A stretch of 64,000 nt of DNA from Psammoneis japonica (lineage: Eukaryota). Location of the stretch: positions 248,001 through 312,000 of the forward strand of contig QPGO01000079.1 of the NCBI GenBank assembly GCA_008632985.1, read 5' to 3'. The position numbers and the translations under genes were made by a program. Of this stretch, positions 2,631 through 24,366 are shown in pieces. The notes under the pieces are model-generated. The model was given only the letters and a program-made list of their open reading frames with translations. It searched no databases and had not been told where the DNA came from. Position 1 is the stretch's first letter. Each line of letters begins with the position of its first letter.

Positions 2631-3685
2631 ATGAGGTTACCGGTACGACCGTTGGCGCCGATTGGTGGTGTTGGATTGGTCATTCTCCTCTTGCTATCTT
2701 ATGTTGTTGCCTTTCGTACCATTGTCGTGGCTCGCTGGTGCTGCAATCGAAATGAGGAGAACAAGGATGGCTGTAATGAGAAAGCCATGCAGTGTGGCTG
2801 GGTTCATCTGAATGACGTTTTGGTGTCATACCTGGGCTTGATGATTCTGTTTCACTACTTCAGCACCATGTTTCGGTCTCCAGGAGTTGTAGTCACACAA
2901 CATGATCAGAGTTTTATGGCAGATGCCAATCAAGGCGGCATGCTATCATCCATCGCGAATTACAATTTACATCGCGAGAAGCATCTTGTTGGATTGTACG
3001 GACTTTTGTCGGCTAACAAGAATGTTACTGCTGCCGACGACGTTTTGTACATTCCAAGTCCGAATGCATCTTTCTGCCAAGTTTGTCAGCACGTGCGACC
3101 CCACGGTGTCATCACTGCTCAAAATGCCAACGTTGCGTGTTGCAGTACGATCACCACTGTGTTTGGGTAAACCAGTGTATCGGCTACAATAACTACCGCA
3201 ATTTCGTTTTAATGTTGGGATTCATTTCCGCTGGGTGCACATACGGTGTCGTGTTGCTCTCTGTCTTGTCTTACGAAAAAATTCTGAGACTTATTCGCGA
3301 AAATGGGTTGATACAAATGCTCTTCAAGCATGTTGGACGAGTCATAACGTTGGAGATGATTGCTAATCTCTACAGCGAGGGCAGCATCAGCCCCGAGCTT
3401 TGCATCAATCTTGTGTTCCCGCTTCTTTTGCTTCTGGGCTTGCTTCTGGGTTACTTTCTCATTGTTCATATCAAACTCATGAGCAAGCCTCTCACGACCT
3501 TAGAATTCAGGCAGCTGCGACGAACCAAAAGAGACGAAACGGGGGTTATTGTAGTCAATCCTTTTGACCAAGGGGCAGTTTCGAATATACAGCAGATTCT
3601 TGGACACAATCTGATATGGTGGTTCCTACCGATTCCCCAAGATCCTTTGCCACCGTTTTTGCCTATTACGAAAAAGATATCATGA
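2631..3685 (+). CDS. DHHC-type palmitoyltransferase (one apparent frameshift at about 3100)
   Basis: [44 protein letters not shown], flanking TM helices, TTLE and NPFDQG motifs. The two ORFs join if one C is added to the CCCC run near 3099-3102. Confidence 0.9.
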
Positions 3686-4072
3686 CGCAGGAGAGAATGT
3701 GTACACAAATTCGTGTAGTTGTTTTAATAGCTGTGAGACCTTGGCGAGACGTCGTCGATACTCGTTGTCAAGCAAGACTCCTCACGAGGTTTTCTTCTCG
3801 AAACAACGAAATAAATAGAGTCGAAACCGAATGAGACTTGATGAGCACCCCACGGATTTGCTAAGAGACTGGAGGATCAAATAACGATTACGTGCAGACT
3901 GCGCGTCTCTTCTTATCTTTGCTGTGCTTCATCCGTTTCGATTAAAAAAAGATACGTTACTAATTATGGAAGCTCAATAAAAGTTTTCATAGGGTATGAA
4001 ACAGATTTCATACCAAAAGCAAAAGATGCCTTCGGCTCTGATGAATGCTACAACTAAATCTGTACGACAACG

Positions 4073-4794
4073 TTACCTTTCCTCTTGGCAACACGTGTTA
4101 CAATCAGCCTCGTTTGTCCCAACCTTATAAAAAGAAAATGAGTATTCAGAAATCAGCATCTATCAACATTTGGCGAAATGCAAGATATGCAGAATGATGG
4201 ATGAAACCGAACACGAGGATACATAGGGACCTACCTGGCGCTGACAATGGGCGCAAATATGTTCTTTGTCCTTGCAGGATGGCATGACCAAAGGCAACCA
4301 AAAGAGAGGCCAAAAAAGCAACAGAAGAACCACCAAGGCAATGATTGCACAAACCCCAAACTGCTCTCTCACGTACGTGGGACCCGTGTGTTGACAAAAC
4401 TGGCAAGCGTGATTGGCAGGGAGTCGACCGAGCCTCGGAGCGACAGGAGGCGGCATCGCAGACCGAGCTGCTGATGCCGCAGCGGGGGGAAGGGCCGTCG
4501 TAGTGCCTGTGGTACAACAGTGTACAGTGTTAAGAAAGAAGTCAGTAACACTAGTGCCAGCGAGTGAATTTCACAACCATCAAACTCACCACCAGGGGGT
4601 ACGCTGCCTCCAGCCTTGTGCTCTGTTGTTGTGACTCGCCTAGTGCCATCTGGCATAACTTCTTCAACTGTCACCGTTTTGGTCCCATCAGCGAATACCG
4701 TCGTCGTTGTTGACTTCATCGAGTGAGGTTGAGCCGGTGGTTCTTTCAGACTGTCCCCTCCCATGGGCACTGCAGTGGCGTAAGGGGTGGACAT
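4073..4794 (-). CDS. LITAF-like zinc-ribbon membrane protein (spliced)
   Basis: CQFC - hydrophobic stretch - HICAHC layout, Pro-rich N-terminus. Last exon after ttttataag reads VGTNEADCNTCCQEER*. Confidence 0.8.
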
Positions 4795-5109
4795 AATGAC
4801 GCGCGATGTGTTTCGCCTTCAACAAAGAGTTTAACCTGGGCTATCCCAATGGTAAGAGGATAGTGAATGCTATCACGAAACTTCTGTCCTTGCTATAGCT
4901 GTTACGCTTGACGCGGTGAACTTCGGTAACAAGTGAGAGTACAGTTTGAAGTTCAGACTGTTTTTTCCGCGAAGTGTAGGTATCATACAAAGACTCGCGT
5001 GCTGCTGCTCTTGGGCCGTAGACCGCCCGCCCGCCCGACCGCAGTGCTACCTAATGCTGTTGAGTGGACTGAGTGGAGCGAAGATCTTCAGTGGCGACTG
5101 TTTTTCGAG

Positions 5110-6560
5110 TGTCACAAAGCTGTCGCCATCCCAACTCTTGTCTATCACCTCTCTCACAAGATCCATAACATGTTGCACCAAACACGGCATTCATCCCGCT
5201 CACCGGCGGCAATGTCTTTCATCTCCCTTCGAGCCGCTCTGGTGCCGCTCTCGGCTCATGTGGTCCAACCCACGCTCCACCCTTTCCCTCTGTCGCATCT
5301 TCCACCAATGCGCTCCCATTCTCCTTCAGTTTGACTCTCCTTCCTTCACTTCATTAACACACGCTGTCAAACACCACAACCTGCATGGTCTTCCACAGAG
5401 CGCTTCACCCACACATCATCATCACAAGACGAACACTCTCCCTCAGATCCTCGCCGATCCCTCCATGCAAGCAACCAGCCCTTCCATCTCTGCTGTCTCC
5501 ACTGACAAGCTTGTGCCTTCACTCCCTTTCCAAGCTCATGCCTCCAGCTGGCTCCCATCGAACTCATTTGCACTTCTTCTCCTTCACAAGCTGTGCCTCC
5601 CAACGATTCCCTTTGATCGGCTCCAATGCGACTGCCCATGTGGCCACACCCGCCCAGACCCTTGCAGAGACCATGCCTTTGAATGCTCCAAAATGCGTTG
5701 AGGCCCGCTGTCAAATCACATTTGCAACACCATTTGCACCATCATCGAAACACTGGCCCCCCTTTGCGGTCTGCGCCTTTCCCGCTAACAAGTCCACCTC
5801 AACCCTGCCGGCCTCTTGGCTGACCACCCCCTCAAACACCCTGCCAATGTTGGCGTTCAACTCACCCCTGGCTCCACACCACCAGGTGCCCCATTCAATC
5901 ACTTCTTGGCCATTGATGTCACTGTGCCGCCAGCTCCCCAGCCTCCTGCACCTGGTTTGCCCATCCCCGAAAACCCCCATTGAACAAGGCTCACCTCAGC
6001 CGCACACAGGACAAGCTTCTCTCAGTTGTTCTGTGCCATCTGCTCACAGCTCCGACATCATCAATGCCATCAATCAAGCCAGACTTTTCCTCCTCCCTTT
6101 CACATTTGACCACCTTGGTGGAATCTGTCTTCTTCTTCGGCACCTCTGCCACAACATCCTCCTCCATCCCACCCCTTCCTCCCAAACCACCCTGGACAAG
6201 CCCATCCTCCCTTTCCAACTCTCAAGCATCCTTCTCCACTTTCACCAACTCACTGCTTGCACCTTTCAACCTCCTTGCCCACTCCAATGTGGCCTGGAAA
6301 CAACTTTCACCGGACTGCTTTGGCTCCTCTTGTCACACCGTGACACCTCAACTCTGGGCCTCTCAAATCCTCAGCCTCAACTTCAGCTTTGCTCTCTCCA
6401 ACCATCTCTCCACATGCCAAGCTCTTCTTCTTTGCCATCCCACTGTTGCCAACAACTCTCCTCTTGACCGTCTGTCCACACTTTGGGTTCACCTTTTTCT
6501 CTCCATCCCCCCAAGCGTGCTCCGCGCAACCCTCCCACCACATGTTTCTCCAGATCAACC
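5110..6560 (+). mobile_element. 3' remnant of a CRE-like non-LTR retrotransposon (zinc knuckle plus restriction-like endonuclease), degenerate
   Basis: Across frames: CDCPCGHTRPDPCRDHAFEC (CxCG..DxxGDHxxxC-type knuckle), HPANVGV (RPAD-like), FLAIDVTV and LLPFTFDHLGGI, in the usual RLE order. TpA-depleted. Confidence 0.65.
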
Positions 6561-8496
6561 CTTTCCAACACCACAAACTTTCCAATTGTCAAAAGAAAGA
6601 GACATTGAAGTGTCTCAAGCACACTCGAGGGAAGAAGGTTTGGGGGGTCGAATTCTGTCTCAAACCAACTTGTCCAAAGATGTCATCAGATTTCCTCTGT
6701 GTCACAAATTGGAAGAGGCGTTGGATTTTTTTAACTGTGATGTCCACTGTCCATGGACACACAAAGGTGTTTTGAGCAAGGAGAAGAATTGCAGTGGTGG
6801 TCTGTCTGTGTGACAGTTTCCACATGCATTTTGTGCTGTCATCCATCCCCACCACCTCCAGCCTGATCCCAGTCACGTGTGTGCACAACTCCTCAAAACA
6901 ACGCCCGCTCCTGTGAGAATCAGAGTGGCACTTTGGACTGTTTTCAATCCTTTCAACAATGCCAATGCCATCTGCCAGTCTTTGCTGTCATGCAGAAGCA
7001 AGTTGCTTGTGACCAGCTGCAAGACAAAAACCAGGGCGCCCTTGTGTTGGTGCCATGGACCAATGCTTGCTTTGCTCTCTGCCACAATCCAGTCATGCTG
7101 TGCTTTTGTTTCATTGTCTTGCTCTGTTTTTTGATGTGGTTGTTGTCATCATTCATGCAGAGAGGCATCAGGTTCTGGTGTCAGCCCTGAGGAGGAGGAG
7201 CATCTGACAGCTTCTCCTGCCCACATCTGGCCTGCTCTGGCACAACCGGGCTTCTTCACATCAGCACAGCGGTGCTGCAGCGTGCTTGACACTCCAGTTC
7301 AGACAAAAACAAGCACCCCAAAACTCATGCCACCAATGACATTGATGGTGGCATGCGCATCGTCTGCACTGTCTGTTGATGGCAAGTGACCAATGAGTTG
7401 AGTTGGTTGCAGGTGATCATCCAACGACCAATGATGCACTTTTGCCACAGATGTTTTCACTCATCACAGGATGCATGGTTCCACAACATCTTAAATTTTG
7501 TTTCTTTTTGCCTTCTGATCTCCAAAGGAGGTCTGAGATGACTTGACCTGATTGACAATTGGGTTGCTGTTGTCAGGCCCACACTTTGGGACCCAATCAG
7601 ATGACAACAGTCAAGTCCATTTTTTGCAATGATGGAACCTCCACTGCAGAAGATGGGCAAATGCTCCAAACACTTTTCTTCTCTGAGTTGGCCCACATGA
7701 TGGGTTTCTGTGAGGTCAAGACCAGCCAGCATGCAAAGACTGTTGTTGCTTGTGCAGGATTGGCAGCACTTCTGAAGTCCCATCAAAGCACTGCATCATG
7801 CCTTTTGGTCACTCCCACCATTTCCTGTTGCACAGTCTGCAAACAGAAACATGTCCTTTCTGGTTCGTTGGGTGGCACTGGGGACACACAGAGACAAGCC
7901 TCTTTGTGATGAGCAACATCCCTGTGTGCAGATTGTGGTTTGACCTGCACAGCAGTCATGCACAAATCTGTTGGTCTGTGCCACAGGTTGCCACAATGCC
8001 TCTCTGGGTGTTTGAAGCAAAAGGTCTTCTTTCTTCCACCGGGTGTTCCTGCCACCAAGCAACCATTTTGGTGGTGTGCCCCCAGCTGGGAACTTGCCTT
8101 TGAACAACTCCTGTGCTTTTGGCTTCATGCTCAAATAAAGAGTGTCAAGTGAGAACCTGATCAGTCTGTGTGGCATGATGAGCTTGACAAAAAGAGGCAG
8201 AAAAAATCCAAAAAGGGCAGCAAGAGAGCAAACCTTGAGCAAGCAACTGCCAGCAGGCTCAAAAGAGTTGGGAAGGGAGAGTTTTGAAATGAGCGGGAGA
8301 ATCTCTCAATCTGGGGCCCAAGTTTGGCAATCTTGCTCTGCACAGACCATGTGTGCTGCACAGCACTTGGGTGCCTTCAGTGGCTTGCAACCCATCTTCT
8401 CCAGACAAAAAAAAGCTTGCTTGGTCTGCTGTGACAATGATGAGGGGAGAAGAGGTCGCTGCAGCTCAGAGGATGATTGGCTCAAATCCAATGAAG

Positions 8497-8730
8497 GCAA
8501 GGTCAAAAACAGGCTTGACAATCTGTGCAACTGAGCTGGAAAGCCAGCAGCCAATTTTTGAGGCACAAGCAGCAATTTTTTTTATCTCCAAACACGCAGC
8601 ACTGCCAGCAACTGCTTCTTGCTTGGCAGCAACATGGCAGTTGTGGTGTGACAAGGTCAAAAACAGGTGCACAACAACCTGCACAACTGAGTTGGAAAGC
8701 CAACAAAATCCATTTGTGCACCAGCAGCGC
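8497..8730 (+). repeat. About 155-bp tandem unit, second array at about 14183-14470
   Basis: aaggtcaaaaacagg...caactgagYtggaaagcca recurs at 8499 and 8653. Related units start at about 14187 and 14344. Confidence 0.75.
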
Positions 8731-8749
8731 CAACAGAAAATGTTGAAAC

Positions 8750-10930
8750 AAACCATGACCAACAATGCAGGGAACACTGAGAGTGTGGACAAACCACAGA
8801 AACCAGCTCAATGTGATGCTGGCAAGGAAGGTCTTGAAAAGTTTCCTTTGAATTCTTGGGGTGGAGCAGCAGAGGTTCTTGAGACAGCACAAGAAATGTG
8901 TGCAGCTTTGCAGCAATTCTCAAACAAAAGGACAGCAGTGGCAAGACAATCCTTGGTTTTGACACAGAGACCTTCTGTCTCAACTTCAGAGAAGGAGGTT
9001 TGGATCTAACAGCATTGGCTCAAGTTGCTGCTCAAGATGCAGTGGGTTTGTTTTGTGTCTGCATGCTTTGGTGGCATGCTTTTGCCCAGTTGATCCCTCA
9101 CTGGAACATGGCAATTTTCTCAAGTGCAGTGCAGGAGGCATCAGCTGGGATGTCACAGAGCTGCAAAAAGCCAAAGCATTCACCACAGGGGTTCACAAAG
9201 ATCACTGGCATCATGAGGTGGTGGTGGCACCTCAATGTCAAGACAGGAGGTTTGTGTGGTCTTGTCAGTTTCTTGCTGCATGGCTGGAAGCAGAGAACAA
9301 CAGAAAAATGGCTTGCACAAATCCTCCCAGCAATGTCGCCACCAAGTGAAGCAGACCAGAAGACAAGCTCAACAAAACATTGTCAAGAAAGACGTTTGTT
9401 GTCTTCTCCTGCTGTTTTTTGGAATGGGTGTGTTGAGGTTCTTGAAATGGCAAGGGTGACAAAGAAGGCCATGGATGAAATCATGAACAAAAAAGTGCAA
9501 GATTGCTGGAAGAAGACAACCCTTGGATTTGACACAGAGGTGGTCATTGCAAAAGAGGGGTGGCATCCACTGAGACACTGGCTCAGATTGTGGCTGAAGA
9601 CAAAGTGTGCCTTTGTTCAGGCTGTGGTCTTTCCAAGAAGCCCACTTTGACCCCCTTTGATTCTCTTGCTGGAGCAGCACAGCAATTTTCTCAAGAGTGG
9701 TGCAAACACATGCACAACCATGGCAGAGCTGAAAAAGTTGAAGCATTTGCTCCAAGCAGATTTGTTGCGATTGTTGACATTGCAAGCTGCCAGGTCAACA
9801 CATCAAGCCTCACAGTTTGTGGGGACTTGTTGGCATGTTGTTGAACAGTCAAAAAAGCAAGCAGGACTGGGAGAAAGCACACAGCATGGAACAAAAGGAA
9901 ATTTGACATGCTGCAACCAGCACATGGGTTGGCTGAGACTTGTGCACAAATGCATTTCAAGACCAGAGACAGAGCTGGGCCTGCCACCCACCATTTCTGA
10001 GATCGACTTCAAAGAAGTTGCAAGGAAGAAGGCAGCACAAGGAGGGATGAACAGCACAGACAAAGCAAAGGAAGAGGAGAAGAACAGAAAATGTTCCTCC
10101 CAGAACATCAGCAGCTCTGATGCCAGCACCAGCAAGAGAGCAAGCCAGAAAGGCATGCTTGGTGATGTGATGCTGGCACAAGAAAGCTGTTTGTGGTCTT
10201 TCTTCCATCTGGAATGGAAGAATTGAGGTTCTCAAAGCCACAGAGGCAATGAAGGCAGCTTTGGGAGAAATGCTGAAACAATGAGATTGTCCTGGCAAGA
10301 CAACTGTTGGATTTGACGCTGAGGTGGCTCTTGTGAAAGATGGGCAGCATCCACTGGCACTGGCTCAGATTGCAACTGGAACATTTGTCTCACATCTGCA
10401 AGCTTCTCAAGTCTCCTTTGATGTGCCATTGATTCCCTTGCTGAAGGCACAGGCATGTGCCAGGATTTGGCAGAGCCACAAGAAGTCAAGGCATGTGCCC
10501 CTTGGGAGCACTTGTGGATGTCACCTCCTGACATCACAACCTTTCAACTCAATGTCAAGGCACAAAGTTCGTGGGGTCTTGTTGGTGCACATTGTCAAAC
10601 AGACAGCTGTCTGACAGCTTTCAAAGAAGCAAATGGGGCTGAGAGAGAAAACACAAAGCCTGGAACCAGGAGAAATTTGCTGCACCAGGGCAGCCAATGC
10701 CTGGTGGCATGGTGGGGCAGGAAGTGTGCACTTGAAGAAGGCAAGCAACAAACTTGTGGCACAGACTGATGTTGAAAGCTGCCTGCCAGAGAGGGAAAAA
10801 GCTGGAGAAAAGAACACAGAAAAACAAAGAGAACAGGGAGGCACATGCAAACAAGACCATCACAACATTGACAGCACCACCTGCCCAGGGCAAAGACCAG
10901 CCAAAGCCAGGGCACTGCACTGAGGCAAAA
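8750..10930 (+). pseudogene. Heavily mutated copy of the 3'-5' exonuclease gene with remnants of three tandem exonuclease domains
   Basis: KTILGFDTET, KTTLGFDTEV and a third GFDAE remnant, plus linker ELGLPPTISEIDFKEVARKK matching ELGLPPVPDIDFKEVARRK of 24367-25539. Confidence 0.88.
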
Positions 10931-11169
10931 TGGAATGAGGCAGAGAGTTGACATGAATGGTGCTTCAGGAGCCACTGTGTTGGGGCATCTGGTGTGAGCG
11001 GGAAATGCAAGAGACCCAGAAGTGGATCCATTGAAGAGAGGATGCTTCAGATCCTGATGTGGTGGATCAGACAACACTTTAGAAATGAGTGCACATTTGT
11101 CACCAATCTCACCAACCTTCTTTTTAACTCACTCTTTGGAGCGAATCATCTGGTTTGCATGAAATGCAC

Positions 11170-13600
11170 TGTGGTGTCAGCAGGTGCCCCCATCACATTG
11201 TAAGATCGAAGTTTTTTGAGAGCTTCCAGGCAAACTGCAGCCACCACAGAGACCAGGACAGGTGTGATTAGCAGCACAGGAAGCCTTGGAGGACTCTCTT
11301 TTGGCACCATTGACCTGTCGGTTCAACGTTCACTCCAAAGAGTTGCAGGTGCTGCACTGGCGCACATGTGGCGCCAACCTCCTTTTTTGTCATCTGAGTC
11401 AGGAAACCTGCCCTTGGGAGCAGCAGAGGAGGAGGAGGAAGAATGAGTGCCAAAGGCCAAGGATGTGACCAAGGCAGGGGCAGCAGAGGACAGAAGTCTT
11501 GCTGTGACAAGAACAAGAAGACTGACCCCAAAAAAAGCTTTGAGCCAGAAATGAAGAATTTTCATCCGTCATCAATGAACAGCAACTCATGCAATGCAAT
11601 GTTTGAAGAAGTCAAGGAAAAGATTGTCAGCCAAGCACAGAAGGAGCATGATCAAGGCATGCATCTGGCAAGGTCCCCAGAAGACATGAAATGCATCATG
11701 TTCACCAGTGAGAAACCAGCACGAGCAATGGCATTGACGGCAGTGCCAGAAAGCTCAAAGGACAACCACAAGACCAAGAAAGATGAGAGGGCCAGAGAAG
11801 AAAGGCAACTGGAACATGAGCACAAGATCAAGTTGCATGACTGCAATGAGAAAGTCAAGAAGAAGCTCTTGAAGAAAACAAAAACACTGCCTTTGCAGCA
11901 ATCCCAGATGACTGCTGTGCCAAGATGATGAAGCAAAGAGTGCCGGCTGATTCCAGTTGTGCAGAGGGGCTCAGAGATGACCAGATCAACCTGCTGAGGC
12001 TGATCCAGCCACTCTTGTGTTTGACTCCATGAGGGGTTGACACCCGTTCCACATTCTCACCAAAAGTCCCTGAAGCACATTGTGGAAGTGAAGCAGTCAG
12101 AGGACAAGTTGCTGAATGACTGCCCGTTTGGATGCAAGAATCAATGGGATGCTGCAAGCAAAGGTCTCAGCAGTGAGATGTCAGATGGGCTCATCAAGAA
12201 TTCCAAGGAGTGCAAGGACTGCACTGAACCAGCAGATCAGAAAGTGCTGAAGGGCACTGCATTCAAGACATGGACAACACACCTGTCCATGGAAAACAAC
12301 AAGGACTGCTGCCACAAGAGTCTCAAGAAAAGCCTTGTGAGAGACTGCAGCCTGGGGAGGGATTTGCATCCAAAGACCCTCAAGAAGGCAATGAGTGTGT
12401 TGCTGAACCATCCAACAAGAGATGATTTTTCATGCAAGAGGCAGAGCAAGAAGAGTTGCAAGCATCAGAATGACAAGAAAGAGGACAAGGGTGATGACAA
12501 GCCCAAGAGCCCACAAGACCAGAGTCATGCACAGAGTGGCAAAGTGACGTGCCACTGTTGTCACAGAGCAAACCACAAGTCCCCAGATTGCAGATGCGAG
12601 GATGAGATCCCACAGAAGGACTGGCTCAAGAGCACCAGCAGGAAACTGGACACCAGGGGACAGAGTCATGCACAGAAAAACAAAGACACTTCATCAGCAA
12701 GCAGCAACAATGCCGGCGTTGGCACCTGCAGGTCAAGTTGATCTGTGAGCTCCACCAGCAGAAGAAATGTCACATGACATGGGTGTTCCAGTTAGATTGG
12801 CAAGCCAAACAAGGGCTGGAGATGAGTTTGAGCCAAGCTGATGCCAGCATTGAGTCAGATGAGATCATCCTTGACAATGATCTACCCCAGCAAGGCAGCA
12901 AGCCAGAGATTGGTGCACAATGTGTGACCAGCAAGGACCAAGATTGATCTTTCCACCAATGCAGGAGTGCACACTTCAGATGAAGACTGCAATGTGCCAG
13001 GATGGGGTGATGTGAAGCTTGGGCACAGAACATGACAACCAATGTCCTGAGCATCAAGGATGTGAAGAGCAAGTGCTGTGTCATGTGCAACAACCAAGTG
13101 GCGGATGAGTTCTGTCTGCTGGATGAGAAGACAGGCAAGCAGGTTGTGGTGTTCAAAGTTGACAACATCAGACTGTGTGCATTTTCACCAAGCCAGTGGT
13201 TCTTTGACCACTTGAAAGAACTCCAAGAAGATGAGTCACATGTGAGCATGCCATTGAAGGACAAGAAGGTTTTGAAGAAGACCAACATGTGAAGCACAAG
13301 AGTGCATCGGGGGAATTGTTGTTCCAACAGTGAAACAGAACATGAAAGGTCACACCAAACAAGAAGTGGCAAATGCTGAGGAAGCACTGAGACTGTGCTG
13401 CAAGGCTGAAATGCCAGTGTCAGGGATTTCAAGCCGTTCCTGCAATCCAATCAGGTGAAGAACCTGTCCATCCCACCTGAGGATGTGGACAGAATGGCGG
13501 CCATGTGGGGTCCACCAACGGATGTGCTCAAAGGCAAGACCAAGCATGCACACCATTTCCGTCCATGAGAGGAGCCATGTTGCCGATCAAGGCTAAAGTC
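11170..13600 (+). mobile_element. Truncated, degenerate Ty1/Copia (diatom CoDi-like) retrotransposon: gag, protease and start of the integrase region
   Basis: CHCCHRANHKSPDC knuckle (Cx2Cx4Hx4C), LGRDLHPKT, IILDN protease motif, NVLSIKDV, TVKQNMKGHTKQEVANA and WGPPTDVLKGKT. TGGTGTCAG at 11172 could be a mutated TGGTATCAG tRNA-Met primer site. Confidence 0.8.
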
Positions 13601-14182
13601 CAAGAAACATGACCATGTTTACAAAGCCTTGGACATGATTCTCCAACAGCACAACATGGCCCCATTTGAGATTCAAGGACATGCTGGCAGAAGTTGCAAA
13701 TGGCATGAACATCTGGAGCTTGTCTCTGCAAATGCCAAGGACCATGTTCCCAAAGTTGAGCAAAGCATTCAGACCACAAAGCAGTGAACCCATGCCACTG
13801 CACTCACTCTTGCACAAGTGTCGCACCCCCTCTGCCCCACTGTTGAAAATGTTGAGTCCAAGACTTGATGTGCTTGACATTGTGGAGGTGGGCAAAGATG
13901 AAAATGACTCCTGGGGCTCTCATCTAGAGCTCGTGTTCAGCCCTGAGTTTGGCAGCTGATTGTGTGTTGCCTCAACAAAGGTGTTGGATGCCTTCAATCC
14001 AGTCACTCCAAAAAAAGCAGTGCTCTTCTTGGCAGAGAAAAAATCAGCTGTGTCGGCATCCAGAAAATTTCTTCAGAGCAGTTGTCCCTGCCTGCCATCA
14101 GCGACATTGAAGTGCAGACACCAATGGAGCAAAGCCACAAGTTCCAGATGAAGCCACCACCACTGGCTTGAACCCAACCAAG

Positions 14183-14470
14183 AAAAGTCAAAGACAGGCT
14201 CAACAACTGGCACAGCTGAGTTGGAAAGTGATGACAGCAATCCATTTGTGGCAAATGGTGATTTTTTCTCTCCAGACACATGGCACTGTGCCAGCAAGTG
14301 CTTCTTGCTTGGCAGCGATGCAACAAACATGGTGCAACAAGAGGTCAAAGACAGGCTCAACAACCTGTGCAACTGAGCTGGAAAGCCAACATTCCATTTG
14401 TGGCAAGCATCAATTTTTCTCTGCCAGCATGCTGCGGTGCACCAGCAAGTGCTCCTTGCTTGGCGCCACC
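14183..14470 (+). repeat. Second array of the about 155-bp unit
   Basis: gtcaaagacaggctcaacaac at about 14187 and 14344; cttcttgcttggcagc shared with the 8.5-kb array. Confidence 0.75.
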
Positions 14471-15793
14471 AGCGGCGCAACAAATGTGGTGTGCACACTG
14501 TCAAATCCCTGTGTGCAGTCCCGCTCACATCCAATTGACCACCCATGTTTTCAAACTCATTCTTGCAAAAGATGCCTTCCTTCACAAGGGTGCACAATGA
14601 GTTCTTTGTCACAGGTCTGCAACCAAGTGAACATTTTCCAACACAGGACAGGTGTGTGTTGCTCTGTGCAATGTGCCACAATGCATGAATGATGCTCTGC
14701 TTGTGGTGCGCATTGCATCTGAGTGTCCATGCCAATTCACACATGCAGCATGTGCCACACACACTGCACCACCCCTGTGCAAGGGCTGCTGTGGGATGCA
14801 GGTGGGTGTGGTGTGTGATGACATCATCACATGCATTGAGTTGCAAATGTTCACATTTGCACTGACAATTGCATGTTGTCAAGCAACAGCTCCCATCCCA
14901 CAGCACCCCTGAATCTCTGACCACCAAACACTGACCCCAGCACTTGACCATTTTTCAGCCATTCTCACACCACCCAAACAACACATGTCACATCAACTCC
15001 ACCATGATGACATCTCCTTCTTTGTCACCAACAACTTGCCAGGACTCCATTCCTGCTGATGTTGTTGACATTGACACTGCTGCAAGAGGCAAGGATGTCG
15101 CTCCGGTTGTTGCACACCTTGTGCACCCCAAACAAGAATGTGCAAACCCGCCCACGCTGTCACTGCACCCATTGTGGAGGATGATGCCATTGCTCCGGTT
15201 GTCGTAACCCAGCCACAGACGCATTGCAATCCAGAAGATGTCAACATTTTTCTCCTGATGCAACACCTGGCACACAGTCTCAAGGCTGCAATTGGTCCAC
15301 CCTGGTCACAGCGTTGCCTGAACAACTTTCTTCTGAGCGTGTGCATCTGTTGTTGTGGCACTGCATTGGCTTGCCCTGTTTTCTGAGATGTTGCACACTG
15401 TGGCACAATGACGCAGTTTGCGGTGATCCAGTGTGGGGCAATGCCAACCACTGGAGCCACTTGGAGTGCTGGCAAAACAACAACTGCTTTCTCATTGTGC
15501 TCACTTTCTACAGTCGTCAAAAGCATTTCTGACAATTTCCCAAAACAAGGTGACCATCTTGCTTTTGTTCCCCTTGCGTTCACAGAGGCCCAAGCACTTG
15601 GTGCTTGCTGCCCAACCATCCTGTTCTGCTGGATCTTCAAAGCAGTGGGGAAACCCAGGACATGCTTGCAGAACTGTCTTGACAGGTGACTGGAAATTGT
15701 TTGTTGATCAAAAAGTGCTCGGCCCTTTCTCATCCGAGGAAGTAAACTGGGTGGTTGTCAGGCAGAAAATGTCTGGCGACAAGGCATGTCAGC

Positions 15794-16524
15794 TGACAGG
15801 ATTTGAACAGGATTTGGGTGCGTGCGAAATGTCGCGTGCTGTTTAGTTCACCGCGCACAGTTTTGTGCGCTCTTTAGTTCCGCGCGCACGCGTGCGATGC
15901 AGTTTGCTTTCAAGCCACACGGCTCACAAGAATGACAACAGCAGCCCGATCACACTGACTTGCACGTCTTTTGGCTCCTGTGACGGTCTCTGAGCGGAGA
16001 CTCATCTGCCATTTAGACAGCAGTGAGGAGTTGTTGTTTGAATTCTTGCCATTTGCCTTCAATTTCTGTCAGACATTGCGTGCGTGAGGCGATTGCCTCT
16101 GGTTGCCTTGAGTTCCACTTCATCAAAGGCTCCCGCAACCCTGCTGACATCCTCAGCAAGCATTGGGGTTGCTCCCAAATCTGGGACCTTCTCCGTCCCC
16201 TCATGTTTTGGAACTTCGTTCCATCCGAAGTCGAACCTGTTTCTGTGACTCCTCAAGCAAACTGGGGAGTGACAGGATTTGAACAGGATTTGGGTGCGCG
16301 CAAAAATGCACAGTTTTGTGTGCTCTTTAGTTCCGCGCACACGCGCGCGATGCAGTTTGCTTTTGAGCCACACGGCTCACAAGAATGACAACAGCAGCCC
16401 GATTGTGCCGACTTGCATGTCTTTCGGCTCCTGTGACGGTCTCTGAGTGGAGACTCATCTGCTGTTTAGACAGCAGCAAGGAGTTGTTGTTTGAATTCTT
16501 GCCGTTTGCCTTCAATTTCTGTCA
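15794..16524 (+). mobile_element. Miniature, internally deleted Copia element: two LTRs around an RNase H tail
   Basis: LTR1 15794-16071 and LTR2 16270-16524, both TGACAG...CTGTCA. 5-bp target-site duplication TCAGC (15789-15793, 16525-16529). Purine tract GGGGAG before LTR2. Internal part encodes HCVREAIASG...NPADILSKHWGCSQIWDLLRPLMFW. Confidence 0.93.
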
Positions 16525-17853
16525 TCAGCAAGAGAGATGTGGGCGGCAGTGAGGAGCAAGCTCAAGAGAGTGCACAACACATCAAATGCACCCATGCCAC
16601 TTGCTTCTCACTGGATTGACCATCATGCACAGTTGGTTTTGAGTTGATGAGAGCCAAAGCCCCTTGTCAGGATCAAAGATTTGTTTGCTTGCAAGTTGGA
16701 GCAATTCCCTGGTTGCACTGCTGGCATCAATGACAGGCTTGCCCAAGAGCTCAATCCGCCACAGCCACAGAAACATCCCCACCTGTCAAAACAGGTGCAG
16801 CAGTGTCAGCATTGGGTGCACCAATCCTGTGAAAGGCTGGCAATGTGCCAGCATTCATGACAGCATCTGTGGCAGGCTCTGCCACATCAGAAAAACAGCG
16901 TCAGTTTGCAGCACATCATTTTGGCTGTTTTTGGCATGAGAGAGGCAAAGCAACAACATTGTTGCCTCTTGCATCAGGTGCACTGGGAACAGCATCAGGT
17001 GTGGTGCTTGCGGGACATGGAGCCATGGCATTGTCATTCACAACAGAAGCTGTGGCAGGCACTGGAGTGTGAGAAACAGAGTGTCCGTGAATGAGCTCTA
17101 ATTTTGGAAGCAGCACCAGGTGCACGATGGCCACAGAAATGACATCACCTGATGCGCCAGTGTCATCATTGTCAGCATCAATGGGTGCCGCATTGTGGTG
17201 AGGTGTTGATGATGAATCACTTGACATCATCATGGTGGACTTCTGTTGGCGCCTTTTTTTGTGTGTTGCACGAGGAGAGAGGGAAAAATGGTCAAGTGCT
17301 GGCTGTCAGTGTTTGGTGGCCAGAGAATTGGGGGAGAGTGTGGATCAGGATTTTCCCTGATGCTCATGAGCATTTGTGTGCAAACAATGCAAAATTTCGT
17401 GAAATGACAGCATGCCACTCTTCCCTTGCACGCACATGTTTGACGGGTGGACAGACAAATTGCTGTGGCCGCCTTCAGAATCCGTTTTTCTTTGTCACGG
17501 CACAACCATGGGCCGCTCCGACAACACTGTCTTGTGAACGCCGCTGTTGAACAATTGCTCGAATCTACCCGACACTACTCACGCTCGTGACAACAAACAA
17601 GGGGAGCGTTTGTTGCATCAAGCAACATCCGGTTTTGGCCGCTTGCAATGGGCTCAGACTCCTCTTGCATTGACTGCGGTTTTTCTGTCTCGTGCCGCTC
17701 GCTCGCGGTCCAACCCATCACCTTCACTGGACGACTCATGTCTCCCTTTCCAATGCAAGCAGCTTGTCACCACTGGCGCTTGTGTTTGGCCTCTCCATCC
17801 TCTGCCTGCTGCAGTGGCATGCTTCCTGACACCTCGTGCTGCTGACAGCAACT

Positions 17854-20814
17854 GTGACAATCGAGAACGTGTGTGTTGATGTTCTGCACCGGCCAGAGTT
17901 TGACCTTGTTGATGACAAGCCGATGAACAATCAAGCAGAGCTGAGAGGAGAAAGTGTTGCAGTTGACATGTCCACACCACCGTGCAAGATTCTCATTGAT
18001 CCCACAGCTGCCAGGCAAGTCCATTCATCGCCCAAGATGCCTGTTGCCCAAGCTGCTAAACTGTTGGTGCGGCGACATGAGAGACTCTACAAAGCCAATG
18101 GTGTTGAAGCTGTGTGCACATTTGATGGCATGCACAATCCACTCAAATGGCAAACGGATGCCAAGCGCAAGGCCAGGAAAAAGCCAATTGAGGACAGAAT
18201 GTCATTTCTTCTTAAACAGAACAAACCTGAACAAGACCGCCTCGAGGTGCTGAACAAAAGGAAGAGTGTCGTTTGTCCTCAAGGAGACATCATGCTTCTG
18301 ATCAAGAAGGTGTTTGACCAAGAAGGAATGCCTCATGTTCAAGCTGCAGTTGAAGCTGAAGCACAGTGTGTGGAGATGCAAAATTCTGGGATCGTTGGAT
18401 GCATGGAATCCAAGGATGGTGACGTGCATGGGTGCAATTGCAAGAAATGGATCACAAACTTGAACCCCTTCAATGGCGACTGCTGCATCTTGGCAGCTTC
18501 TCAAATTGATGCTCGTGAGTGTGCGGGTGGTGGGCGCTGGAAGGATCACAAGCATGCTGCTCCTGCTTTTCAGAGCTGCGACTGCAATGTGAAGCCACAC
18601 AGTTTGCCGTTTGCCAAAACGATGGATGGATGCATCGCTGCCACAGATGAGAAAAAGCACCTCGAGGACATTGAGACCAATTTTAAGTGGCCGCCAAAAG
18701 CTCATGGTGCTGATGACAGAGGGCAGCCTGCAAAAGGATTCGCGTTGGAAGCCGGGCACACCATGAACATGTTCCTTGGTCACCCAGTCTTTTGGCTGTT
18801 GCCAAAGGAAGGTTTGGATAAAATTGATTTGTCAAAACTGCCAAGCAAGGATGCGCATGGCAGCATTGAGCTTGTGCCATCATGTGATTGCCCCCAATTT
18901 TCTGAGGATGGTGGCGAGGGATGGGGAAGATGCCTGGGATGCGACAAGTCACCGGCGGCTGTGCTCGGAGACATTCTACACAGCAATGGCATGGACAATT
19001 CTGACTGCTGTCCCTTGCTCTCAATGGAAATGTGGGCAAGGGGAGGAAAGCCACTTGAGCGAGAGGCAATTCCATGTCCTCAACACGACAACCGACACAT
19101 GATCAGCCACCTGGCAGAGCTCAACGTTGATCCAGACAAAGGCGGTGTTCCTCTCGGATTCCTTGATGTTGACCACATGAGAGCTTTTTTGCAGGAGCGG
19201 CGAAGCCTGCCACCATCTCATGCCGGGACCATCCCAAGTGCTCATCTTGAGGAAGCAGCGCGGGCCACTCCAGACAAAATGAAATGACCAAACGGTTTGC
19301 AGCTGGTGCCACGATCCTTGTCAGAGTCATGAAAAGATTCGGGAACTTTTTCTGTTGAGCAGGTGATGCTGCCTCCAGCAGGGCAACAGCGGCAGTGGGA
19401 TCATGAAAATGTCATGCAAAGAGTGCGAGGAGCAATGAAAATTGATGACAAATCCATCAACAACATGACACATCGGAAGAAGTGAGGTGGCGCAAGGTGC
19501 TGTGCTTGCCGACGCATTGATGGTGGCAACTGCAATGTCAACACATTCTCTGTGACAGAGGGAAGGCACAGGGAGACAAGACGCAGCGTTGTTCTCTTTC
19601 GCATGCTTGTGACCCCATCCCAGAAGTCGGACCCATGTTGGGCACATGTCGCATTTGACAAGGAGACAGGAGACTGTGTTCCATGTCCTGGATCGAGGTG
19701 TGAGTGCCCCGTGGTGGATGGGTGTTCCCACACCCTTGCTTTTCTTGGAGGTCCGATTTGCTTGGCGCAAACGAATGTCGAATGGACCGTGGACACTCTT
19801 GCTGAAGCAATGCTGGAGTCCATCAAGCCACACCAGTCATGTCCCATCCCTTTTGAGGCTGGAGCTTTTGAGTCTAGCAAAGTAGAGAAGGAGGTAAAAG
19901 CTGAGGGAAGAGCCACTCTGGCATTCCATGAGACCCATGGTTCCAGAGAAAGGGACAACGAAGACGAAAATGTTGAGACGGCGGCACAAAATGAAGAAGA
20001 TGATGATGGAACTCCCACAACACAAATGTGCGCCAACACAGAGGTCATGGTTGCAAAGGCTAAAAAGAGGGCCGAACTGACAGAGACTGAGCGAGATTTT
20101 GCTCATTGGGTTGCATTGGACAAGATGCGAGCCATGAACAAGGAAAAGCTTGAAGGCAAGGGCGGGCCAAATGAGTCTCTCGACTCAAAGCATGAACAAT
20201 TAGAGATGCTTGAGTGCCTGCATCAAGAAGTGAAGGTGGGAAACCTGCCACGGATGCTCCTCTCTCACTGCGCAGAAATTTCAAAGCCTTGCCATGATTG
20301 TTTGTTGAAGCAGCTGCCGCACGTGAAGGACCCATCCACAGTCCGCCAAAAACACCGTCTGCCAAAAATTGAAGAAGACGATCAAGCATGCGGCGACAAG
20401 AATTTCAACAATGCATCTTGCTTGCATCCCAATGGCAATGAGATGATCTGCCCAAAACACCTTGTTGGGAAGCACTGTGACATTGCTGAGGTGCGTGAGG
20501 ATGAAGGAATCAAATCGCTTCGATGGTCAAGTGAAGGTGTCTTCACGTGAGCAATTGATGATGCCCATGTTCAAGATGTCACAACCAGCGGTCATTTCCC
20601 TTGTCTGCATCATGCTGTCAACTGCTCTCAAGGGCGCACCAATCTCTGTGCCCCATGCCACGCCCCTGATCCAAACCTGCATCCAGCTGACAAATCTCAC
20701 TTTGTCGACTTTGAAGAAAAGAAATTGGCAGCTCGAAAGAGGAAAGAAAAAGCTCGGGATAACAGAGCAAAGAAGAAGGAGGCAGATTTACAAAATGTCA
20801 CAAAGGAAAATTAG
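17854..20814 (+). pseudogene. Transposon ORF: XPG/EXO1-family nuclease + SWIM finger + putative C-terminal half of a DDE transposase
   Basis: One reading frame broken only by a few TGA codons. Motifs: LRGESVAVDMS, TFDGMHNPLK, AAVEAEAQC, SKDGD, SCDC (GCDY-like), RCECPVVDGCSH, then RLPKI..GDKNF..PNGN..P..L.G..EV..D..I..LRWSSEGVF. Ends in TAG. Probable start ATG now reads GTG (ctATG->ctGTG). Confidence 0.78.
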
Positions 20815-20884
20815 TCCAGCTGACTGCCTCTCGTGTTTTGTGTTGCATGTGTGTTTGCTTCTTCTATTGTCAACACTGACATGG

Positions 20885-22560
20885 TTAGTGTGGCTCGTTG
20901 GCAAACAAAATTTGGTTTGCATCAACTGTTCCCCACAATTCTGTCAATCTGTTCTCAGGGCATCGTCCAAAGCAGAGCCCTGTGTGCTCAAACACTGAAC
21001 CAGTGGGAGCCAACCATGTCATTGTAAGCCCGTCACTCGAATCCGTCTTCTCATTGTACAGCAACCGATCAAGAGCAGCACAGACTCGAACTGTGTCTGT
21101 CACAAACATTTTGCCATCCACGACCGCCGCGATTTTTTCATGGCCTTTCTCCCCAAATGTTTTTGGCACCGCAGTTGTGATGTAAGAGGTGCATTGAGGT
21201 GGATTGCTTGTGGTTGAGTGTGGAACGTTGTCACTTGATGCAACGTCTTCTGGCAGGCAATCGTCCATGAAGTCCAAATCGAGCATGGACATGTAAAGCC
21301 CTGCTTTTCCAAGGCAAGGCATCCACATCTGTGCTGTCCGTGGAAACCAGCTGTTGCCTTCACGATGCCATGTCGACCCCAAAGTTGCCACCCGACAATC
21401 CCGGTGCACCGTCATTGTGCATGTCAGCACCTCTTTGACCGCCGTGAATTGCTCCTTTCCCTTGCCGTGTCTTTCCTCTACATCAGGAAACCAAACCTTT
21501 GTGATGCAGCAGATGGCTTCCTCAAATGTCCCCAATCCCCAAAGATGCTTTGCCATTTTGTCATGATCCTCGTGCCACTTGCCGCTCATCAGATTCTCCC
21601 TGCTAAGTCCACCCATCGCTTCAATCTCATCCTCCCGCTCCAAGCACACTTTCAACTTTTGAGCCTTGTCTGCTGGCTCTGATGACAGTTTGTCAGCTTT
21701 TTTCAATGCAATTTGAAGCAACTCATTCACATGCTCAAGCTCTGCTCGCAAGCTGACATTCTCCTTTCCTGCTCTATCTGGATCAAATGCGGGGCGTGCC
21801 TCTGTGCTGCTGCAACTTTTCGGACCATTGGCGGTGGACGAGGCAAGTCTCTTGCATTGTCATCCTCATCAAGACATGCTCCAATGGGGTCCAATGATGT
21901 GCGGGCTGACTTTGCATCTCGTGGATAATCTTTCTTGGTGCAGTTCAGTGCCGGGCAGCATGACATTTTTCCATTGCTCCGATCTCTTGCGTCACTTTTG
22001 TGAAAGCACAACAATTCTCCCGTCTCACAGTCCACATTTTCCAAGGGGCCTTTGTTGTCCTCTTTTAAAATGGCAGGATGGAAATGATTGAATCCAATGC
22101 ATTCACAATTGCCAGTGGGTTCCGGTGGCACACAAGAGTTCCCAACAAGATGCCGACACGCCACGACTCTCATGTCATTGTCACTGACACTGCCACCTCC
22201 ACATGGCCTTCTTTTGCTGGCACATGGAAGGTGGCAGCAACCACACCTTTTTTGTCACCAGCATCAATGAAGTCCTTTGTGCTTTGCTTGCACTCTTCCT
22301 TGTCACGGCAGATGCATGGGCAGAGCCGCACACCTTTGCAATGGTTTCTCTGGGGATCTCGCTTGCGTTTGGGAGGCGACGTCGCGCGGACGATTCTTCC
22401 GTCATTGCTGCAGCAGGCAGAGGAATGCCAAAGCTTGTAGATGTGCCAGTGGTGACGGGCTCCTGTCGACGGCAACGGAGACACACGTCTTCGAGTGGGT
22501 GTGATGGGCCGAGCTGTGACGGGAGCTGAAGAGAAGAAAAATGGGTTGATGCCGGTGCTG
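20885..22560 (-). pseudogene. Transposon ORF: THAP-like finger + coiled coil/HTH + N-terminal half of a DDE_Tnp_4-type transposase (frameshifted)
   Basis: CPCICRDKEEC..FHVP..HFHP, then AVVDGKMFVTDTVR..LYNEKT..LTMTWLAPTGSVFEHTGLCFGRCPENRLTELWG. Ends in TAA soon after, before the second catalytic Asp. Start position uncertain. Confidence 0.72.
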
Positions 22561-22889
22561 CCTGTGCCCGTGGAAAGGGCACACAACAAAGGATGTGACT
22601 TGCCGGATGTAAGGCTCTTACAGCAGTTTCTGTTGTTAATAGCGCCAGTGGTGTCAGGGAGAGTAAGCTTCTTGTTGAACAGTGGCAATGTCAAAAGAGG
22701 AGGTCGTCAGAGGCAATTCAGCGTCCGGGTCACGTCTGTGCATGCCGGCACATGCCATCGCCGGCCGGCCAGGCGCCAGGACTACTGTACGTACGTCAAC
22801 CGCATGACCGCGAGTGCGTCGGGCGGGCGTCGATCGACAGGGTTTTCACGGAAAAATTCAAGTCAGAAGTATAAAAAACATACCAGAGC

Positions 22890-23058
22890 CTACGCCACTA
22901 GTGGCGTAGAATGGTTCAGGGTGTACACAAATTTTGTACCACAGTGGCGTACGTGATTTTGATATAAGATTCTACATGCGCCTAGTGGCGTAGACCCAGT
23001 ACAAAAGCAATAAATTTTTGAAGTTTTGTGGCGTACAAAGTCAGTATGTTGTGGCGTA
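22890..23058. repeat. Subterminal GTGGCGTA repeat array with a perfect 20-bp palindrome
   Basis: CTACGCCACTAGTGGCGTAG at 22890-22909; GTGGCGTA at 22901, 22944, 22985, 23028 and 23051. Confidence 0.9.
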
Positions 23059-24366
23059 GATTCGACATCAACAAGACTTCGCGCAACACTCGCAACAACC
23101 AAGACAACAGAAAACCGCTCGCAAAATCTCGCTCCCACTTTACACGTTGCAGCTGATGTGGTGTTGTTCATTCGTCTCACTCGTTTTCATCGTGGAACCT
23201 CCTGATGACACAGGGTGTCTTTCAGGTGTGTGCATCGGTCTGATTGCCCCCCCCTCTTTGGGCAAGAATGGGGTGTGTGGTTTGCTTCTTGAAGACACCA
23301 GACCAGAGCCACAAGGAGCTTGCAGTGGAGAGCTGGCAAGCAAAGCACTGGGCTGCGCCACAAGGCACTGGCTGATGGGACAGCATTGGGCAAGCACAAC
23401 TGCAAGCATTTTCCTGAGGGCACTTTGCACCACATGTGACAAAGCCAGAAACATGGACTGAGAAACACAGACAGAGCCAGGTTTTGCTCAGCTGGCCACC
23501 CAGAATTCAAGCAGGGGTGCAGCCGGAATGAAGAAGGCTGCAGGTCAATTTGAGGTCCCAGTGGGAACTTGCTTTGCATGTTTGTTAATAGCCTGCTGCA
23601 GAAGCTGTGGCTGCACTGGAAACCCAAAGGTGGCGGTGCGTGATGGGGTGGATCTTGCAAATTCTCTCAAGATTTTGTGATGCATGGGGCCAAAATTTGG
23701 GTGCAGCATCCACAGATGCTTTGGGAGAGATGCTGTGAATTCGTCAAGGCAGGCACTTCTGACAGCATGGGTGGGGAAGGCCAGTGCTTGTTGCCAGGGA
23801 TCTTTGTGAAGATCTTTTAAAGAGGATGACACTGCGTTCTCTCACTTGGAAACTTCAGAGAATTGTTTGGACACAGCGTGGGGCCAAACCCGCCAAAGTG
23901 TGCACTGAATTTTGGAGAACAAAGAAGACACAGATCAGCGGCAGTGGCCACCAAGCTGGCAGGGCAAGGCTTGGAAAACAAGCTGCCCAAAAAGCCATGA
24001 TGGGCTGGCAGCAAAGCACTCCTCACAAAAGATGCCGCTGTCAAGCTGTGCCACAGACTGCACAACTCCACAGTTCTCCAGCACGCTGTGGGAGCTTTGC
24101 TGCCAAGCATGTAAAACCGCAGCACCTCAAGTCACAGACAAGCTGCTTTGCAGGCAGAAGCCCAGCCAAGGGCCGCAAGTTGACAGCCCCACAGCGTCTT
24201 CTCTTTTTCTCCTTTTTCCTTCTTTTCCTCTCTCTCTTCTCCTTTTCTCCTTTTCAGTTTATTCTTCTGGGCCGCCTCCGGCGGCCACCTCTTTCATTCT
24301 TCCCACATGCCGAAATCTCGTTGAAGGTCGACAGAAGAATTAGAAGACAGAAAATCGGAACAAACC

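Follow-up and report, generated by a model that had tools for sequence, protein, structure and literature searches.

Here, we analysed 64,000 nucleotides (nt) of the genome of Psammoneis japonica (GenBank assembly GCA_008632985.1, contig QPGO01000079.1, positions 248,001 to 312,000; hereafter the window), which harbour an island of about 17 kb that is almost devoid of the dinucleotide TpA. Together with three smaller blocks, this part of the nuclear genome likely consists of nested dead transposons and pseudogenised copies rewritten in place by two dinucleotide-specific transition processes, of which the one acting on TpA bears the signature reported for the alga Bigelowiella natans (Mettrop et al., bioRxiv 10.64898/2026.01.13.699255). 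The first process would turn TpA into TpG or CpA (A:T to G:C on either strand) and appears nearly complete, with approximately 92% of the expected TpA lost. The second would turn CpG into the same two products, with about 40–50% of CpG lost in the younger parts of the island and about 85–90% in the older ones, which would be the decay expected from deamination of 5-methylcytosine in CpG-methylated transposons. The window establishes the signature, its direction, the restriction to TpA, the involvement of both strands, sharp edges near expressed host genes, action after insertion and a loss of TpA ahead of the loss of CpG. A preliminary description of this DNA, made without database searches, had proposed a TpA-directed mutator acting next to CpG decay; this core reading holds, the interpretation as a whole is partly supported, and the kind of process turned out to have been described already.

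Dinucleotide signature and limits of the purge

All coordinates are positions in the window. Composition was counted in the block 5356–22437 (17,082 nt), with 36,405 nt of ordinary DNA elsewhere in the window for comparison. Just 51 TA occur in the block, while 200 mononucleotide shuffles yielded 1069 on average and never fewer than 1013. Observed/expected ratios (o/e) in the block were 0.05 for TA, 0.31 for CG, 1.78 for TG and 1.67 for CA, compared to 0.57, 1.03, 1.12 and 1.13 in ordinary DNA; the remaining twelve dinucleotides shifted far less. The near-absence of TpA with abundant TG and CA between normal flanks, from which the preliminary description had started, was thus reproduced. Expressed per kb, ordinary DNA has 38.5 TA, 59.1 CG, 70.0 TG and 70.0 CA and the island has 3.0, 19.5, 103.3 and 112.2, the combined loss of TA and CG (75.1) being balanced by the combined gain of TG and CA (75.5). 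The share of pyrimidine–purine (YpR) steps among all dinucleotides is 23.8% in the island and in ordinary DNA alike, and the GC content of the island is 0.50. In total, 1764 TG and 1917 CA were counted in the island, and the gain of TG is about equal to that of CA in most of its 1-kb bins.

TpA o/e was 0.00–0.15 in the 1-kb bins from 5001 to 22000, 0.0 in the bin 1001–2000 and 0.13 in the bin 23001–24000. Further low values were found at 24001–25000 (0.30), 26001–27000 (0.36) and 32001–33000 (0.20), the remaining bins lying mostly between 0.4 and 0.8. Merging of windows with a TA o/e below 0.2 gave the intervals 901–2500, 5101–22600, 23001–24600, 26001–26500, 32201–33400 and, weakly, 56701–57500. 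The edges of the purge are sharp (932/2364, 5166/5355 and 22438/22610); the block 933–2363 has no TA, compared to 27 in the preceding 500 nt and 16 in the following 500 nt. As a control for chance, we defined the signature as a 1-kb window with a TA o/e below 0.2 and a mean TG/CA o/e above 1.4, which was found in 39 of 127 windows here versus none of 1356 from a set of 80 metagenome loci unrelated to the window (734,891 nt); these loci are the surroundings of exonuclease relatives, mostly bacterial in appearance, and served as control only. The purged blocks are as follows (no strand assigned).

5167–22609: main purged island of nested transposon relics (TA o/e 0.05, CG 0.31–0.33, TG and CA about 1.7); dense TA ends at 5166 and resumes at 22610
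933–2363: isolated TA-free block (0 TA in 1431 nt, CG o/e 0.43), containing copy C (see below), with host genes identified by Pfam as neighbours (amidohydrolase, 2–685; DHHC, 3017–3682)
23142–24340: third purged block immediately upstream of an intact exonuclease open reading frame (5 TA in 1199 nt, o/e 0.07; CG o/e 0.31)
26001–26364: short TA-free stretch on the 3' side of the exonuclease unit (TA-free gap 26000–26365; TA o/e 0.08 and CG 0.64 in the 500-nt window)
32201–33400: possible further TpA-poor block with CpG near normal (TA o/e 0.12, CG 0.72, TG 1.35, CA 1.52)

Assignment of the last block, in which TG and CA are raised only slightly, is uncertain, since it may reflect either plain coding bias or an early stage of the same purge; its paralogue pair lies mostly outside the block and is uninformative. 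A search for inverted repeats at 933/2363 and at the outer edges of the island returned none. A patch of 0.4 kb with plentiful TA and CG (22740–23140) is flanked by two purged blocks and was either spared by the purge or inserted later. The motif GTGGCGTA(G/C) occurs about six times in this patch, for which the summed word depth is approximately 400–1100.

Direction and sequence context of the substitutions

The direction of the changes can be read from three copies of an exonuclease unit and from the relic of a nuclease gene inside the island.

24367–25539, forward strand: copy A, intact open reading frame (ORF) of 390 amino acids (aa) with a 3'-5' exonuclease domain (Pfam DNA_pol_A_exo1, E 1e-15), used as less-mutated reference
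25588–26609: second exonuclease-like segment, broken, downstream of the ORF of copy A
8794–10974, forward strand: copy B, decayed and frameshifted paralogue of the exonuclease unit within the island (1 TA, 6 CG)
1234–2219: copy C, decayed, in the block 933–2363 (72.6% identical to 25703–26609 over 980 aligned columns)
17836–19287, forward strand: relic ORF of 483 aa of the XPG/FEN1 nuclease superfamily (Pfam XPG_I, E 1.4e-9; XPG_N, E 1e-3)

The best homologues of the copy A ORF are 57% identical to it, and it matches the consensus of outside sequences at conserved positions. Copy A, the least-mutated copy of the two-part unit (24367–26609), contains 58 TA and 110 CG. At the TA sites of copy A, copy B has TG in 19 and CA in 13 cases and has retained none, and at the CG sites it has CA in 32 and TG in 31 cases. 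With copy A as the starting state and B and C as derived copies, A to G changes per site amount to 0.47 at TpA (n = 83), corresponding to approximately 94% of TpA steps, compared to 0.13 each at CpA, ApA and GpA. C to T changes reach 0.41 at CpG (n = 200) and 0.09–0.12 in other contexts, the value of 0.10 at CpA being background, and transversion rates were 0.04–0.09. Because A to G is raised only at TpA and C to T only at CpG, we distinguish two separate dinucleotide-specific transition processes. The second, A:T to G:C process on both strands that had been postulated earlier is well in line with an A to G rate raised after T only and with both TG and CA as outcomes.

The same rates bear on the suggestion of the preliminary description that an error-prone synthesis of the pol-eta type could be the mutator. 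Patch synthesis of this kind, recruited to heterochromatin, would bring errors biased towards A to G. The hotspot of pol-eta, however, is WA, which predicts raised rates at ApA, yet ApA does not differ from GpA and CpA and stays far below TpA. Hence, we regard this source as highly improbable.

Outside homologues point in the same direction as the paralogues. Arginine codons shared by copy A and 9–10 of 10 outside homologues are TGN in copy B (codons 69, 95, 160 and 170), i.e. CGN became TGN. The XPG-like relic has 149 homologues in the representative library and matches EXO1/FEN1 in the PDB at E 5e-5. At nine columns with tyrosine in most of 13 homologues, it shows cysteine (TGY) five times, histidine (CAC) once, leucine twice, lysine once and tyrosine never. 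In its 483 aa there are 1 tyrosine, 21 cysteines and 21 histidines, while its homologues contain 2.3–5% tyrosine; no tyrosine occurs in the 332-aa ORF starting at 19552, and our recount of both tyrosine numbers agreed exactly with those given earlier. Tyrosine-free homologues were sought among 389 proteins and none was found. A 42-nt pair singled out in the preliminary description (24835–24876 and 9246–9287) indeed shows exactly six differences, two TA to TG and four CG to TG or CA. Finally, 40 of 1307 rows of differences between copies were listed, 36 of them inside 5356–24000, and 16 of these 36 pair TG or CA in the window with TA or CG in another copy, the reverse being found in three. The direction TA to TG/CA and CG to TG/CA, as read from paralogues and outside homologues, is thereby confirmed, in agreement with what had been claimed.

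Action at the locus after insertion

A small element with long terminal repeats (LTRs) within the island allows changes to be assigned to the time after its insertion.

15789–16529 including target-site duplications, forward strand: small, structurally intact LTR element (TRIM-like), 731 nt between the duplications, read from the sequence and from direct repeats D1/D8
15794–16071 (278 nt) and 16270–16524 (255 nt): LTRs with TG...CA ends and a purine tract ahead of the 3' LTR
15789–15793 and 16525–16529: target-site duplication TCAGC (5 bp)

The LTRs of an LTR retrotransposon are identical at the moment of insertion. Here, an alignment of 259 nt with one 23-nt gap shows 19 transitions and no transversion between the two. 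Eleven of the differences are CG in one LTR versus TG or CA in the other, five are steps with CA in one and TG in the other (CA/TG-discordant), and three are other transitions near the gap and the alignment end, so that 16 of 19 lie at CpG or CA/TG-discordant steps. Such a discordance is expected when an ancestral TA or CG has been hit twice, independently in each copy; from the numbers of kept and half-lost CpG we estimate that double hits on CpG would give about 1.7 discordant steps in the LTRs compared to the five seen, albeit with small numbers. Discordances are also numerous in older repeat pairs within the island (9/192, 6/142 and 10/234). Tandem repeats from ordinary DNA of the window show transversions at 8/103, 27/577 and 18/451, with 0, 0 and 3 discordant steps. 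Since the LTRs were identical at insertion and now differ mostly at YpR steps, the mutagenic activity must have reached this locus after insertion. Read from this alignment, at least the CpG process acted in place, and probably the TpA process did so as well.

The LTRs also speak to the idea that the elements were poor in TA and CG before arrival, either by RNA editing prior to reverse transcription or by long-term avoidance within their families. Sharp block edges, one of them coinciding with an inverted-repeat arm, would fit such an origin, as would two family-majority differences from a TA-poor copy among the rows listed for the LTR family. But the LTRs of a single insertion have diverged mainly at YpR steps, and unrelated kinds of sequence (the LTR element, inserts bounded by inverted repeats and pseudogene copies of a neighbouring gene) have been purged alike. 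In addition, the two strands were hit about equally, unlike in editing of a single transcript strand, ORFs are broken at conserved residues, and other copies have kept TA or CG. We thus consider prior depletion very unlikely and favour rewriting in place.

The TA sites that survived hint at an extended sequence preference. YTAR (mainly CTAA/TTAG) accounts for 26 of the 51 TA in the island versus 210 of 1402 in ordinary DNA, RTAY for 1 of 51 versus 448 of 1402 and mixed contexts for 24 of 51 versus 744 of 1402, where the survivors include sites that are repeat copies of one another. Two TTTAG sites are retained at corresponding places in both LTRs and are thus old survivors instead of new mutations. 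The skew favours a refractory context in which the A is followed by a purine on either strand (YTAR), although new TA arising from YC to YT changes could mimic it. ADAR likes a 3' G, whereas YTAR sites survive best here. A possible influence of the 3' neighbour on the choice of strand was assessed at 48 aligned TA sites, with 15 versus 10 in the predicted direction, which is too weak for use. A composition-based version of this test is confounded by the flank bias of CpG itself, at which cytosines preceded by a pyrimidine (YCG) had changed in 37 cases versus 19 for the opposite strand (copies A, B and C; 24391–26620, 8794–10974 and 1234–2225).

Separation of TpA loss and CpG loss

The depletion of TpA is as strong in the part of the island with 4–15 CpG per kb (6.3–15.3 kb) as in the part with mostly 30–41 per kb (15.3–22.4 kb; one 1-kb bin with 16). 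Taken together with the block 933–2363, which has no TA but a CpG o/e of 0.43, this indicates that TpA loss precedes CpG loss and that the two are separable. The same observation has to be weighed when asking if a single machine is responsible for both YpR steps, i.e. a dual A/C deaminase or one complex that recruits both activities. Both losses coincide in blocks and sharp edges, and ADAT2 of amphioxus and Trypanosoma is stated in the B. natans preprint to be able to act on C in DNA. However, the losses are decoupled in degree, 210 of 211 mutations reported for the giant-virus (nucleocytoplasmic large DNA virus, NCLDV) region of B. natans are A:T to G:C, and CpG methylation followed by deamination is a sufficient and ordinary cause of the second loss. 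A single machine therefore appears quite unlikely, and we keep to two processes.

Authenticity of the sequence and copy depth

In accurate reads, a modified base appears as its unmodified parent, and contigs that match exactly at the depth seen here are what such reads would give. The public run X1, which contains 84% of the sampled words of 6001–16000 and is probably from the sample behind the assembly, yielded k-mer contigs (word depth about 30–60) without any difference to the window at 9089–11531 (2443 nt, depth 34), 11833–12492 (660 nt), 17407–17965 (559 nt) and 22346–22876 (531 nt), all within purged blocks. A base-calling artefact of long reads is unlikely on these data, and random assembly error is ruled out. 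The only point that would speak for an artefact of base calling or assembly caused by chemically modified DNA is that the sole run containing the stretch stems from the same sample, with no platform on record. Besides the exact contigs, several features of the sequence contradict it: copies B and C carry frameshifts, indels and 4–9% transversions in addition to the transitions, the losses of TpA and CpG vary by block, and two TA survive at matching places of both LTRs. Thus, we consider an artefact extremely improbable.

The summed word depth of X1 across the island is 35–96 in the lowest bins, 200–1700 in intermediate ones and 43,000–144,000 at 15.3–16.7 kb, the region of the LTR element; over 22677–24000 it is about 1000. 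Although summed word depth reflects copy number poorly, these values suggest that the island is a mix of low-copy and repeated parts, and the family of the LTR element appears to be very high-copy. This qualifies the view that the process is targeted at repeats, as put forward in the preliminary description: its confinement to a transposon island with sharp edges holds, but parts with the lowest word depth are purged to the same extent.

Comparison with known systems

The closest known case is that of B. natans. In mutation-accumulation lines of this alga, 231 of 302 nuclear mutations fell into an integrated giant virus and a virophage, and 230 of the 231 mutations in these two hypermutable viral regions were A to G or T to C on TpA (Mettrop et al.). 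The rate, observed in some lines only, was approximately 6e-7 per site per generation, about 1000-fold over background; the genome contains 124 clusters of windows that are TpA-poor and rich in CpA and TpG, and an ADAT2-like deaminase was proposed. In our window, the proxy for such a rate is the 16 YpR-step differences alongside 0 transversions between the two LTRs. The likeness covers A:T to G:C changes at TpA only, TpG or CpA as product depending on the strand, and discrete blocks of non-host DNA. Applying the published cluster cut-offs (TpA ≤0.43, CpA+TpG ≥1.52) and assuming that o/e equals Rho, sixteen consecutive 1-kb bins of the island (6001–21001) would qualify as such a cluster. The report of TpA-only hypermutation of foreign DNA, proposed as defence in 2026, supersedes the statement of the preliminary description that no such genome-defence system had been described. 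Our literature search returned this one matching report and none of TpA purging in diatoms.

There are clear differences, however. The host is a diatom (stramenopile) instead of a chlorarachniophyte (rhizarian), and the targets are transposon relics and pseudogene copies, whereas those in B. natans are integrated giant-virus and virophage DNA. Saturation differs as well, with a TpA o/e of 0.05 here compared to 0.45 in the giant-virus region, and the evidence is a historical footprint as opposed to measured new mutations. Moreover, strong CpG decay is present here, while a term search of the text of the preprint available to us gave no occurrence of 'CpG' and none of diatoms. What is new in our window is the occurrence in a second, distant lineage, transposons as targets, near-saturation, the coupling to CpG loss with kinetic separation, support from the LTRs for changes made in place and a possible preference for an extended sequence context.

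Fungal repeat-induced point mutation (RIP) consists of C:G to T:A changes mostly at CpA, so that TpA arises and the DNA becomes AT-rich (PMC2621366, PMC7296669). Like RIP, the changes described here are context-specific transition hypermutations that cripple repeated or foreign DNA in place and within local limits. Unlike in RIP, TpA is destroyed and GC remains at 0.50, and with C to T at CpA at background the feature defining RIP is lacking. RIP is triggered by duplicated sequence and depends on RID/DIM-2 methyltransferases; in the island, parts with a low word depth (35–96) are purged too. Diatom DNA methylation occurs mainly in CpG context (PMC5124317). Decay by deamination of 5-methylcytosine resembles the changes from CpG to TpG and CpA on both strands within the repeat island, including the eleven LTR sites; it accounts for the CpG half only and cannot remove TpA. 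ADAR and APOBEC, which edit viral and retroelement nucleic acids in animals, share with the present case a deaminase-driven hypermutation that would serve as defence, and ADAR is stated in the B. natans preprint to prefer U before the edited A. However, these enzymes act on RNA or on single-stranded replication intermediates and mark one strand, whereas both strands of resident DNA are affected here. A to G changes confined to the transcript strand, as in hyperediting of the ADAR type, were not observed, since the gains of TG and CA are nearly equal and inserts that are not retroelements and are bounded by inverted repeats are affected as well.

Candidate agent and weight of the evidence

The agent of the TpA process might be a nuclear polynucleotide adenine deaminase acting on DNA and converting A to inosine, which would be read as G. 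Such an enzyme is our favoured candidate, which we put forward tentatively. The mutator would be aimed at silenced chromatin and could serve as genome defence by crippling ORFs, exchanging tyrosine for cysteine or histidine and removing TAA and TAG stops.

Alternatively, the chemistry could start from thymine: an oxygenase of the JBP/TET type would produce 5-hydroxymethyluracil or 5-formyluracil at TpA, which mispairs with G and leads to T to C on either strand. A T to C change on one strand looks the same as A to G on its complement, and both TG and CA are common outcomes. Sequence evidence does not separate this route from adenine deamination. 5-Formyluracil is mutagenic towards T to C, and 5-hydroxymethyluracil in dinoflagellates is enriched at TpA. 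On the other hand, we know of no enzyme of the JBP/TET type and of no such base in diatoms. The authors of the B. natans study favour deamination as well. We thus rate thymine oxidation as unlikely and retain adenine deamination.

Several points weigh against our interpretation of the island. For TpA specifically, the evidence for action in place is indirect: the five CA/TG-discordant steps between the LTRs would derive from TA, but CpG would be expected to contribute approximately 1.7 of them. The high-copy LTR family may have been poor in TpA already in its source copies, with two family-majority differences in the element among the rows listed. Run X1 is probably derived from the assembly's own sample, with the platform not on record, and is thus not independent. 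The evidence comprises one window of 64 kb. Finally, the hypermutable regions of B. natans are almost without C to T changes, so that nothing in that alga corresponds to the joint loss of CpG in our window.

Further contents of the island

The island contains additional insertions and ORFs.

17714–22508, no strand assigned: possible 4.8-kb element carrying the XPG-like ORF, delimited by inverted repeat I1 (arms 17714–17777 and 22445–22508)
14906–17334, no strand assigned: nested insertion with long degenerate inverted repeats (I2–I4)
5385–6467 (360 aa), 14073–14951 (292 aa) and 19552–20550 (332 aa): long tyrosine-free ORFs rich in cysteine and histidine without family match

The arms of I1 (64 nt) are 72% complementary with 10 transversions in 64 aligned nt and thus form a weak repeat, the right arm being located at the right island edge. 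XPG nucleases are presumably carried by Academ transposons. No match to the XPG-like ORF was found among proteins of similar length or in the viral_contigs collection. Contigs of run X1 join position ~14857 to ~17367 and ~14911 to ~17138, the joined sides being separated by some 30 nt of different sequence in each case, and related copies may therefore lack the insert 14906–17334.

Without TA, the only stop codon left is TGA, and long ORFs are therefore expected by chance in such DNA. For the ORF at 19552, Pfam gave no match even at E ≤10, and an atlas lead to a viral alkaline exonuclease/YqaJ had a score of 0.78, which is below the useful level. The ORF 20888–21859 had no usable match among the atlas leads. 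No viral hallmark was found in the island by viral_contigs, atlas leads and Pfam, and Rfam and a tRNA scan detected no RNA genes in the window.

Host genes and flanking DNA

The flanks encode eukaryotic genes, among them an amidohydrolase, a DHHC palmitoyltransferase, a LITAF-like protein, a Ham1/ITPase, a UvrD-type helicase, ankyrin and CCCH proteins and an ABC1 kinase. The LITAF-like gene (4001–4975, reverse strand) is represented by a spliced contig in a second run, X2, and its end lies about 200–400 nt from the left edge of the island. This contig skips 4122–4232 (111 nt) and 4506–4588 (83 nt), which suggests two short introns, and X2 accordingly looks like RNA. X2 contained no near-identical contig within the island, a blank not used here as evidence of silence; among the runs listed for the stretch, none is recorded as RNA. 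A short-chain dehydrogenase gene (42924–43880) showed 61–74% identity to the 120 matches listed, apart from one plant match among them at 42%, none being near-identical. Among its matches with an organism name, 13 of 14 are from diatoms and one is from a plant, in agreement with the diatom host suspected in the preliminary description on sequence grounds; the host is thus not Bigelowiella.

A gene of the Ham1/ITPase family (41656–42864, forward strand; Pfam E 8e-50) has an ORF with approximately 195 aa ahead of the domain. Deaminated purine nucleotides are cleared by ITPase, and the occurrence of its gene in the same window as an apparent footprint of adenine deamination is probably coincidence. 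Two tandem arrays lie in ordinary DNA: a GC-rich one at 33600–35140, with copies about 130 nt apart inside a long ORF with a weak match to acidic repeat proteins, and one at 39110–39650, with copies about 63 nt apart inside a 660-aa ORF (38444–40426).

Significance

A natural, context-specific A:T to G:C mutator of DNA directed against invading sequences would mirror fungal RIP and APOBEC defence. So far, the only report of the TpA mutator is the preprint on the rhizarian B. natans. The diatom footprint implies that the process is peculiar neither to one species nor to viral inserts, and it connects the TpA process with transposon islands in which CpG has decayed as well. For genome annotation, TA-free relics without TAA and TAG produce long false ORFs, lacking tyrosine and rich in cysteine and histidine, which mislead gene callers. 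We speculate, as a possibility we ourselves consider rather doubtful, that the TpA mutator is an old arm of genome defence common to at least stramenopiles and rhizarians, which would read a silent-chromatin mark bearing CpG methylation and to which YTAR sites (e.g. TTAG) may be refractory. Diatoms are ecologically dominant algae, some of them with genetic tools, and lend themselves to a search for the enzyme. If such a shared defence arm exists, they would be tractable organisms for finding the first natural adenine deaminase of chromosomal DNA.

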